A stretch of 40,530 bases of DNA, from IMG/VR virus record IMGVR_UViG_3300044959_000025, positions 1 to 40,530 of that record. The stretch is one strand, 5' to 3'. The position numbers and the translations under genes are program-made. Positions 39,314-39,854 of the stretch are shown here, piece after piece. Numbering within the stretch: position 1 is the stretch's first letter; every line of letters starts with the position of its first letter. The stretch is from a virus. The notes beneath the pieces are model-generated. The model was not told where the DNA came from. It did no database searches and saw nothing but the letters and a program-made list of their open reading frames with translations.

Positions 39314-39334
39314 GGGCGGCCCGAAGGGACGCCC
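39314..39334 (+). other. GC-rich hairpin at the predicted 5' end of the P5 transcript
   Basis: gggcg-g-ccc-gaa-ggg-a-cgccc. It starts about 7 nt after the -10. Confidence 0.5.
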
Positions 39335-39367
39335 CCCAGCAGATTCCCTCTACTCCCGCAAATAACT

Positions 39368-39522
39368 CCACACAACAACACACAACAACAACAACAACAC
39401 ACAACAACACACAACAACAACAACAACAACAACAACAACAACAACAACACCACACTACCACAACACACTACCACAACACTACAACACACCAATGCACACA
39501 CTACCACAACACACAACAACAC
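39368..39522 (+). repeat. 155-nt A/C-only tract (1 G and 5 T by my count) including (CAA)12 at 39412-39447
   Basis: Read base by base. Units include CACAACAA, CAA, CCACAACAC and CTACCACAAC. Confidence 0.95.
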
Positions 39523-39854
39523 GGCGAGGCGTGACACGTTGCGGTGGGCATGTGTGTGTGAGTGGTGGTGTGGGGATGAAAGAGTGGACGAGAGGATGAA
39601 AGAGGGGGGTGGTTGATATGCGCCGCGGCTGGCACGCCTCACAAAACACCCCCCTTTTGGGATTCAGGTCAAGGGGGGGGATATGTTCCTAGCCTAGGAC
39701 TATATTCCTATGTGCGGTTGGCTGCATGGTGAGTGTGGGAGTCGAGGGCGTTGGGCGTATTGTGCGGTGCAACATGATTTTGTGAATGGTGGGGTTGGGC
39801 GCGTTTGCTGTCGTAGAGCATCCATCTACCATCGCGCATGGCAAGCGCTTGCTA

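Follow-up and report, generated by a model that had tools for sequence, protein, structure and literature searches.

The described elements that come closest to the one considered here are the Rho-utilization (rut) sites of untranslated leaders, the C/A-rich translation enhancers and ribosome standby tails, the Pseudomonas RNAs CrcZ, CrcY and CrcX, the anti-sRNA (anti-small RNA) AgvB of an enterohaemorrhagic Escherichia coli (EHEC) prophage and the microsatellite contingency tracts of bacteria. Rut sites are single-stranded bubbles in which C exceeds G and YC dimers are spaced along the RNA, and the descriptors that discriminate them include %CA, %AAC, %ACA and %CAC (PMC6144790). Both (CA)n 5' tails (PMC5934652) and ACA motifs (PMC3879156) have been found experimentally to enhance translation. 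Here we describe a tract made almost entirely of C and A in a phage genome, IMG/VR virus record IMGVR_UViG_3300044959_000025; 'the window' denotes the whole stretch that was analysed, positions 1 to 40,530 (40,530 nt) of that record. The tract (39366–39522) sits in an 899-bp non-coding gap (39062–39960) that separates divergent late and early operons. We tentatively favour the hypothesis that it is a slippage-built, structure-free stretch, richer in C than in G, on which Rho could enter the untranslated leader of a rightward transcript, and that a twin tract in the late leader could act as a C/A translation enhancer. The features of the rightward side of the gap are these.

39279–39307, plus strand: sigma-70-like promoter 'P5', TTCACG-17-TATAAT, with 10 of 12 consensus matches.
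39314–39334, plus strand: GC hairpin where the rightward RNA is predicted to start, GGGCG.GCC-GAA-GGG.CGCCC, −13.9 kcal/mol.
39335–39365, plus strand: conserved C/U-rich, G-poor segment CCCAGCAGATTCCCTCTACTCCCGCAAATAAC, which holds most of the YC dimers.
39366–39522, plus strand: C/A-only tract (apart from the few residues counted below) of AC and AAC units, with (AAC)12 at 39413–39448 and three copies of CACACTACCAC.
39541–39575, plus strand: GU-rich segment with the invariant GAGTGGTGGTGTG (39560–39572), which pairs with CACACUACCAC of the tract.
39603–39655, plus strand: G6 arm AGGGGGGTG (39603–39611) and C6 arm CACCCCCCT (39647–39655), followed by UUUU; −29.3 kcal/mol, z score −2.2.
39649–39680, plus strand: conserved hairpin of a C-run, a UUUUGGGAUUC... 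loop and a G-run, present in nine genomes, down to 44% flanking-protein identity.
39681–39705, plus strand: hairpin or palindrome ATATGTTCCTAGCCTAGGACTATAT, at two pairs of which the four sister genomes introduced below have either G-C or G-U.

The 157 nt of the tract comprise 85 A, 65 C, 1 G and 6 T. Its longest G-free run measures 135 nt, against 47 nt for the runner-up genome-wide, and its longest run of pure C/A 88 nt, against 20 nt; run lengths of this order argue that the tract is not due to chance. Within it, lone C residues are spaced by one or two A residues, AAA is absent and CC is rare, a grammar that brings ACA to 2.4–2.7 times the expectation from composition and that is common to all four sisters. 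A first-pass annotation of this DNA had reported the GC hairpin, the C/A tract and (AAC)12, each of which is found where it had been placed, and had proposed that no credible open reading frame (ORF) exists here. This was borne out: all ORFs over the tract encode low-complexity peptides, on which ground a coding reading was rejected, and candidate small ORFs downstream of the tract, translated by eye, shift frame between sister genomes. The annotation had also called for the region to be folded. The predicted fold of a 352-nt RNA is better than that of 100 out of 100 shuffled sequences (z score −3.1), its individual hairpins are no better than G/C-rich composition predicts, and the main part of the tract is predicted to be 54–83% unpaired.

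We hypothesize that a rightward, untranslated transcript issues from the divergent control region and that this segment forms its 5' part. The C/A tract, as a mosaic of slippage-expanded AC and AAC units, would not pair with itself as RNA and, together with the C/U-rich segment, would present about 190 nt of C-rich, G-free and largely single-stranded RNA, with the 5' hairpin upstream and a G-rich, hairpin-forming region downstream. The most likely reader of such a stretch in an untranslated bacterial RNA would be Rho, which would load on the tract and terminate or attenuate transcription in the G-rich zone (approximately 39540–39710), ahead of early genes that have promoters of their own. The mirror C/A tract of the late leader, which lies right before the ribosome-binding site of the first late gene, would promote translation, either as a C/A (ACA) enhancer or as a standby site for ribosomes. 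We infer the firing of the promoter, the identity of Rho as the reader and the positions of the 3' ends; what is observed is the layout of the segment, its lack of coding capacity, the way it is related and turns over between genomes, and a composition like that of rut sites. In all four genomes the excess of %C over %G, taken over 78 nt between the predicted start and the tract end, is 0.41–0.47 (the genome 99th percentile is 0.37), and the same stretch carries 21–23 YC dimers, with chains of 4–5 spaced 9–13 nt. The C>G bubble, and in part the YC dimers, match published rut descriptors (PMC6144790). A rut site is expected to have such a bubble over roughly 80 nt or more of untranslated, unstructured RNA, and the stretch here is non-coding and predicted to be mostly unpaired.

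Known rut sites of untranslated leaders, among them lambda nutR-tR1 and the C>G bubbles defined previously (PMC6144790), resemble this locus in their adjacent hairpin, in the pause-prone structured sequence downstream and, in part, in their spaced YC dimers. Unlike them, the tract body in the window is an AC/AAC microsatellite with few YC dimers. A promoter scan of the left part of the gap gave P5 as its sole sigma-70-like match in rightward orientation. The first-pass annotation had started its transcript from this promoter, should it fire: a sigma-70-like match does lie upstream of the hairpin, and all four sisters keep a −10 box and a hairpin at the same place (degenerate in L012), the −10 box reading TATAGT in three of them, but the −35 box degenerates to TCCACG, CCCACG or TCCACA.

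Relatives were recovered by searches with flanking proteins and DNA patterns. Four sister genomes (L006; L009/L010; L012) have 87–96% identity to the window in the adjacent 135-aa protein, and a more distant set of five genomes has 44–52%. The sisters keep a homologous G-poor C/A tract of 142–160 nt with 3–7 G residues, together with the C/U-rich segment CCC..ATTCCCTC..CCCGCAAATAAC, the invariant GAGTGGTGGTGTG and the downstream region to approximately 39800, at 76–93% identity, on a par with the neighbouring gene. Their tracts align with many indels and array replacements, (AAC)12 in the window standing against (CTACAACACA)8 in L009. The 5' hairpin is identical or nearly so in L006 and L009, and in L012 it has 8 substitutions and a weak predicted fold (−6.3 kcal/mol); this variant was considered as possible covariation and set aside, since its weak folding is not clean compensation. 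The distant relatives keep TTGTCAAG and, after it, a GC hairpin with a C/U-rich stretch; they also keep TTGATAT(C/G)GC and, about 30 nt downstream of that, a hairpin of a C-run, a UUUUGGAUUU-type loop and a G-run. In L013, L014 and L015 the GC hairpins differ from that of the window and occupy the same position. The interval between the kept elements is filled in distant lineages by other repeats and palindromes, lineage by lineage, and the homologous spot in L011 has only about 30 nt of C/A-rich sequence.

In one of these lineages, L013, the place of the C/A tract (approximately 185–330 of its intergenic region, in window orientation) is taken by a palindrome, GTGGCAnnTnTGCCAC, present in three copies, and by direct repeats of TATAGAGC. 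To judge from their sequence, these repeats resemble operator or iteron sites, and other lineages may use the variable interval to bind a regulator.

The conservation extends to elements downstream of the tract. The suggestion in the first-pass annotation that the GU-rich segment pairs back onto the C/A repeats is well founded, in that GUGGUGGUGUG, within GAGTGGTGGTGTG, is predicted to pair with CACACUACCAC over 11 bp, with a single U-G wobble on the plus strand; CACACUACCAC occurs three times in the tract (at 39451, 39464 and 39497). The same annotation had ended its transcript at a C-rich arm followed by TTTT. The G6 and C6 arms are present, but they do not make a canonical terminator: the stem encloses a 35-nt interior and absorbs the four U residues, so that the GC stem with a 3–8-nt loop and a U-tract that marks an intrinsic terminator is not seen, and a terminator scan of the plus strand called nothing at 39600–39660. 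The upstream G-run (39603–39611) is weak in L009 and absent in distant relatives, and across nine genomes (the window, L006, L009, L011, L012, L013, L014, L015 and L023) the C-run pairs with the downstream, not the upstream, G-run. Since there is no canonical terminator and the C-run pairs in this manner, a defined RNA of approximately 345 nt, as had been proposed, is unsupported.

By comparison of these nine sequences, the C-run/G-run hairpin is the most conserved non-coding element of the region and is not a terminator on either strand. Its loops are of the type UUUUGG(A/G)(A/U)UU, and one TT/AA pairing of the window is replaced by TA/TA in L006. A terminator on the minus strand was considered and rejected, the tails downstream not being U-rich across the relatives. 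The alternation of G-C and G-U pairs in ATATGTTCCTAGCCTAGGACTATAT fits a plus-strand RNA, rather than DNA or a minus-strand RNA, and as it comes from four sequences it is a weak indication. In the same region, 39619–39692 read from the ATG at 39619 shows differences among the sisters at third codon positions only (CGC CGC / CGG CGG / CGA CGA, then CAC GCC / GCA / GCG). This pattern hints at a short MRR..HA peptide, a reading that was rejected, as the conserved TTTTGGGATTC is read in another frame in L006 and distant relatives have ATC for ATG.

Two of these observations count in favour of the Rho-entry hypothesis: the hairpin followed by a C/U-rich, G-poor segment is the part that is kept in the distant relatives, and the wobble-type changes fit a plus-strand RNA. 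Others weigh against it. The −35 box of P5 is weak and the promoter is absent in the distant relatives; the hairpin at 39314–39334 is no better than composition-matched shuffles (z score −1.4); and the tract itself is lineage-specific, being absent in relatives at 44–52% protein identity. Point substitutions in the tract amount to approximately 9% (window compared with L012), about the same as in the flanking non-coding DNA, and include changes to G and T. YC dimers are scarce inside the C/A tract, at 6–8 per approximately 150 nt, so that the chains of 4–5 lean on the C/U-rich segment, and the YC chain of the late leader is only 1.

The second part of the hypothesis concerns the leftward side of the gap, where the following features were found.

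39268–39296, minus strand: leftward promoter-like element, TTGACA (39296–39291), 17 nt, TATGTA (39273–39268), overlapping P5 back to back.
39286–39300: palindrome CCCCTTGTCAAGGGG, in the P5 spacer, which supplies the perfect minus-strand TTGACA.
39218–39260, no strand assigned: inverted repeat ACACACAACACAC / GTGTGTGTTGTGT around a C11 run (39235–39245); as minus-strand RNA −15.2 kcal/mol, z score −3.1.
39091–39204, minus strand: mirror tract, (GT)27 and (GTGTT)9 on the plus strand, giving the late operon a C/A-only leader of (AC)27 and (AACAC)9.
39062–39091, minus strand: late-leader hairpin in which CUCCU pairs with the AGGAG Shine-Dalgarno sequence of the first late gene (ATG at 39061); weak, at −8.3 kcal/mol and z score −0.9.

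Because (GT)27/(GTGTT)9 lies across the promoter-like core from the tract, a leftward late transcript would also begin with a C/A-only leader. Its composition and ACA density match those of 39366–39522, and it lies, on the minus strand, just upstream of the ribosome-binding site, the placement of a standby site or enhancer. The resemblance to known C/A enhancers and standby tails (PMC3879156; PMC5934652) lies in (AC)27 and (AACAC)9 standing directly upstream of a Shine-Dalgarno sequence that CUCCU could sequester, but the tracts of the window are 5–10 times longer than the 16–18 nt that give standby tails their maximal effect (PMC5934652). The tract at 39366–39522, by contrast, does not directly precede a ribosome-binding site, and between it and 39960 (approximately 440 nt) there is no conserved ORF; enhancement by (CA)n or ACA therefore fits the late-leader twin and not the rightward tract.

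All four sisters retain the leftward TTGACA (TTGTCAAG on the plus strand), as do L013, L014 and L015. In L014 the element reads TTGACA-17-CACAAT (10/12), and in the window the leftward −10 box is without the conserved final T. The TTGnCAA core of CCCCTTGTCAAGGGG is kept across the clade, and on sequence grounds this palindrome could be an operator, or a −35 box shared by two mutually exclusive promoters. The late-leader hairpin is kept in L004, L005 and L010 and the inverted repeat in L009, L010 and L012, neither being kept in L006. If the two tracts are read as RNA, they would constitute an extreme natural case of a landing pad defined by composition and free of specific sequence, with approximately 150 unfoldable nt for the early and late units alike, and the pair, if this is true, would offer a clean system in which to compare Rho, ribosomes and Hfq as they compete for C/A-rich single-stranded RNA.

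An alternative that we regard as nearly as likely as Rho entry, and likewise possible rather than probable, is that the tract and its (GT)n/(GTGTT)n mirror are slippage microsatellites that arose, without adaptive value, when a short C/A-rich seed expanded in a tolerant spacer, with any effect being exerted by the DNA through spacing, through Z-DNA or a supercoil sink, or by copy-number tuning of the neighbouring promoters. The pure arrays differ between sisters, as noted above for the window and L009, and unit copy number differs among near-identical genomes: (GT)n ranges from 17 to at least 42 among the relatives, and AT-rich repeats from approximately 12 nt, the length in the window, to approximately 90 nt. 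Assemblies of at least four other samples have contigs (in L005/L012, L027, L028 and L029) that end in or beside (GT)n. The genome also builds a C/A-rich repeat inside a gene (see below), and the short C/A-rich sequence of L011, the filling of the interval with other repeats elsewhere and the confinement of the tract to one lineage point in the same direction. Since the substitution rate of the tract equals that of its flanks, with changes to G and T included, there is no sign of special purifying selection on its composition, and selection of this kind was judged not demonstrable. Against a purely neutral origin, total tract length is stable (142–160 nt) while neighbouring repeats vary 3–5 fold, the grammar of the tract is kept in all four sisters, and the tract lies between conserved elements, its 3' end pairing with the invariant GU 13-mer; both tracts also put C/A on the outward sense strand, which amounts to one bit of information only. 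Microsatellite contingency tracts show the same differences in copy number between near-identical genomes and the same replacement of arrays by slippage, but the present tract lies in a non-coding leader of a phage, not in a bacterial promoter spacer or ORF, and its total length is fairly stable. Even if they are slippage debris only, the tracts mark a fixed point at which assemblies of this phage clade break.

The interpretation put forward in the first-pass annotation was that of a discrete phage sRNA whose (AAC)n/ARN array titrates the distal face of Hfq, or Hfq/Crc in the manner of CrcZ. This interpretation is partly supported, to the extent that a non-coding, probably transcribed, single-stranded tract is plausible and the motif logic and terminator are not, and as a whole we consider it unlikely. 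Hfq binds repeated A-R-N motifs, and prophage sRNAs that engage its distal face exist (PMC4104026), as do prophage anti-sRNAs with C/A-rich seeds, so that the idea of a sponge is chemically sound; the relatives of the amidase and capsid proteins come, moreover, from phages of Gram-negative hosts. A distal-face site is expected to hold at least four consecutive A-R-N triplets. The window has two ARN runs, one of 12 triplets and one of 5, and its AAnAAnAA motifs, which overlap, number 13, in RNA predicted to be single-stranded, but the phasing is not kept in the sisters: the ARN runs of at least three triplets are of 4 triplets in L012 and 3 in L006, with none in L009, and the overlapping AAnAAnAA motifs number 2, 1 and 0, respectively. 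What the sisters share, as far as their sequences tell, is composition and not ARN/AAnAAnAA phasing, and the comparative evidence thus lends the idea no support.

A search of Rfam over 38900–40530 at E values up to 10 found neither CrcZ, CrcY or CrcX nor any other credible family. The Pseudomonas RNAs are of comparable size, and several AAnAAnAA motifs lie in the predicted single-stranded RNA of the window, but the window has no covariance-model match, its motifs are lost in the sisters, it has no terminator, and its promoter is sigma-70-like and not of the RpoN/CbrB type, no sigma-54 motif (TGGCAC-N5-TTGC) being visible upstream of 39314. The 3' U-tail or Rho-independent terminator of Hfq-dependent sRNAs is likewise absent from the window RNA. 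AgvB, the EHEC prophage anti-sRNA (PMC4104026), is also a phage-borne C/A-rich sequence with CACAACA and ARN motifs, but the tract of the window is a 157-nt low-complexity stretch without a terminator. The tract is absent, besides, from the more distant relatives, and (AAC)10 arrays occur in at least 119 IMG/VR viral contigs (loci L030–L148), many of them giant-virus metagenome-assembled genomes, the longest C/A tracts among the matches listed lying mostly inside long open frames. An array of this kind by itself therefore says little, and no Hfq site should be deduced from (AAC)n alone.

It is also improbable, in our estimation, that the tract marks a DNA element, such as a replication origin or a packaging site or terminus, on which reading the hairpins, the AT-rich repeats and the strand-asymmetric GT/CA tracts would function as DNA, with initiation, for example, primed by transcription or by an R-loop in the G-rich zone. 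The divergent intergenic site adjoins the replication module, relatives carry AT-rich tandem repeats, the cumulative GC skew has its minimum in this region, and G-runs lie on the non-template strand downstream of the promoter. However, the AT-rich element is only approximately 12 nt in the window and the repeats do not form conserved iterons, gene orientation accounts for the skew equally well, the length of (GT)n explains why contigs break, and the 127-bp terminal repeat of the window lies elsewhere and is probably an assembly overlap.

We would give a similarly small chance to an abundant early RNA acting as a decoy, in which approximately 110–150 nt of obligately single-stranded, ACA-dense C/A sequence would titrate Hfq (with or without Crc), Rho, 30S/S1, a G/U-rich sRNA or an ACA-specific toxin RNase (MazF), and the late leader would use the same factor, to give an early/late switch. 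ACA is the cleavage site of E. coli MazF (PMC4926141); a MazF decoy was rejected because the phage genes do not avoid ACA, which is only mildly under-represented (0.86–0.89), to a degree similar to TGT. The least probable alternative is a base-pairing sponge, in which the C/A tract would imitate C/A-rich mRNA targets and thereby sequester a G/U-rich sRNA of the host, in the way that AgvB sequesters GcvB, or in which the GU segment would mask the C/A late leader. In its favour, the GcvB R1 target consensus CACAACA (PMC4104026) occurs eight times in the tract, two to six times in the sisters and nine times in the late leader, an antisense TGTGTGTGTG oligonucleotide blocks (CA)n standby tails in vitro (PMC5934652), and the RNA does contain the invariant GU 13-mer. 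Against it, any AC/AAC mosaic would be expected to contain CACAACA, there is no co-variation between the GU segment and the late leader (L009 retains (AC)n together with GUGUAUGCGAG), and the GU 13-mer finds its best partner within the same molecule.

The ends of the window are identical over 127 bp (1–127 and 40404–40530), which indicates that the contig is a complete, circularly assembled phage genome of 40,403 bp; the size of the repeat suggests that it is probably an assembler overlap rather than a physical terminal repeat. The rightward gene block (approximately 1 to 15547) encodes a Dda/RecD-like helicase, a fusion of uracil-DNA-glycosylase (UDG) and PolA, an AAA_24 protein and a DUF3987 protein, and the leftward block (39061 to 15516) the major head protein, portal, large terminase and a T7-lysozyme-type amidase. 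No tRNA or transfer-messenger RNA gene was found. A megablast search with 36000–40530 gave no match among GenBank phages, the best protein matches among phages are 25–55% identical, the closest cultured-phage proteins come from mixed hosts, and a capsid scan for a host over 185,579 species genomes gave no match; by these comparisons, the phage is novel and uncultured.

A C/A-rich repeat is also found within the 1395-aa ORF at 15516–19703, at 18989–19165 (minus strand), where the coding strand has a G-free, C/A-rich repeat of 100 nt that encodes a Thr/Pro/Gln-rich linker (STQPTTPTTQTTPTQPT...PTPTPTPTP) and is followed by a (GGT)n Gly-rich run; similar repeat DNA thus serves as coding sequence elsewhere in the genome. 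In the DNA polymerase (11631–14072), a family A polymerase is fused to a 3'-5' exonuclease and a uracil-DNA-glycosylase-superfamily domain; the closest sequenced relatives of this protein, at 24–28% identity, are from Manatee Spring phages, a Microcystis phage and a Desulfofustis phage. Early promoters at 39885–39913 and 40424–40452 (the latter identical in sequence to 21–49) share TTGAC(A/G)-17-(TGC)TATGT(T/G), and these two promoter cassettes flank a small gene (39960–40364), in place of which L006 and L012 carry another gene and which L009 lacks; on sequence comparison it looks like a swappable cassette. In L014, a gene at 4988–5230, in the late operon downstream of the homologue of the 135-aa gene, encodes an Acb2/Tad1-hairpin domain (an anti-CBASS/anti-Thoeris sponge fold).

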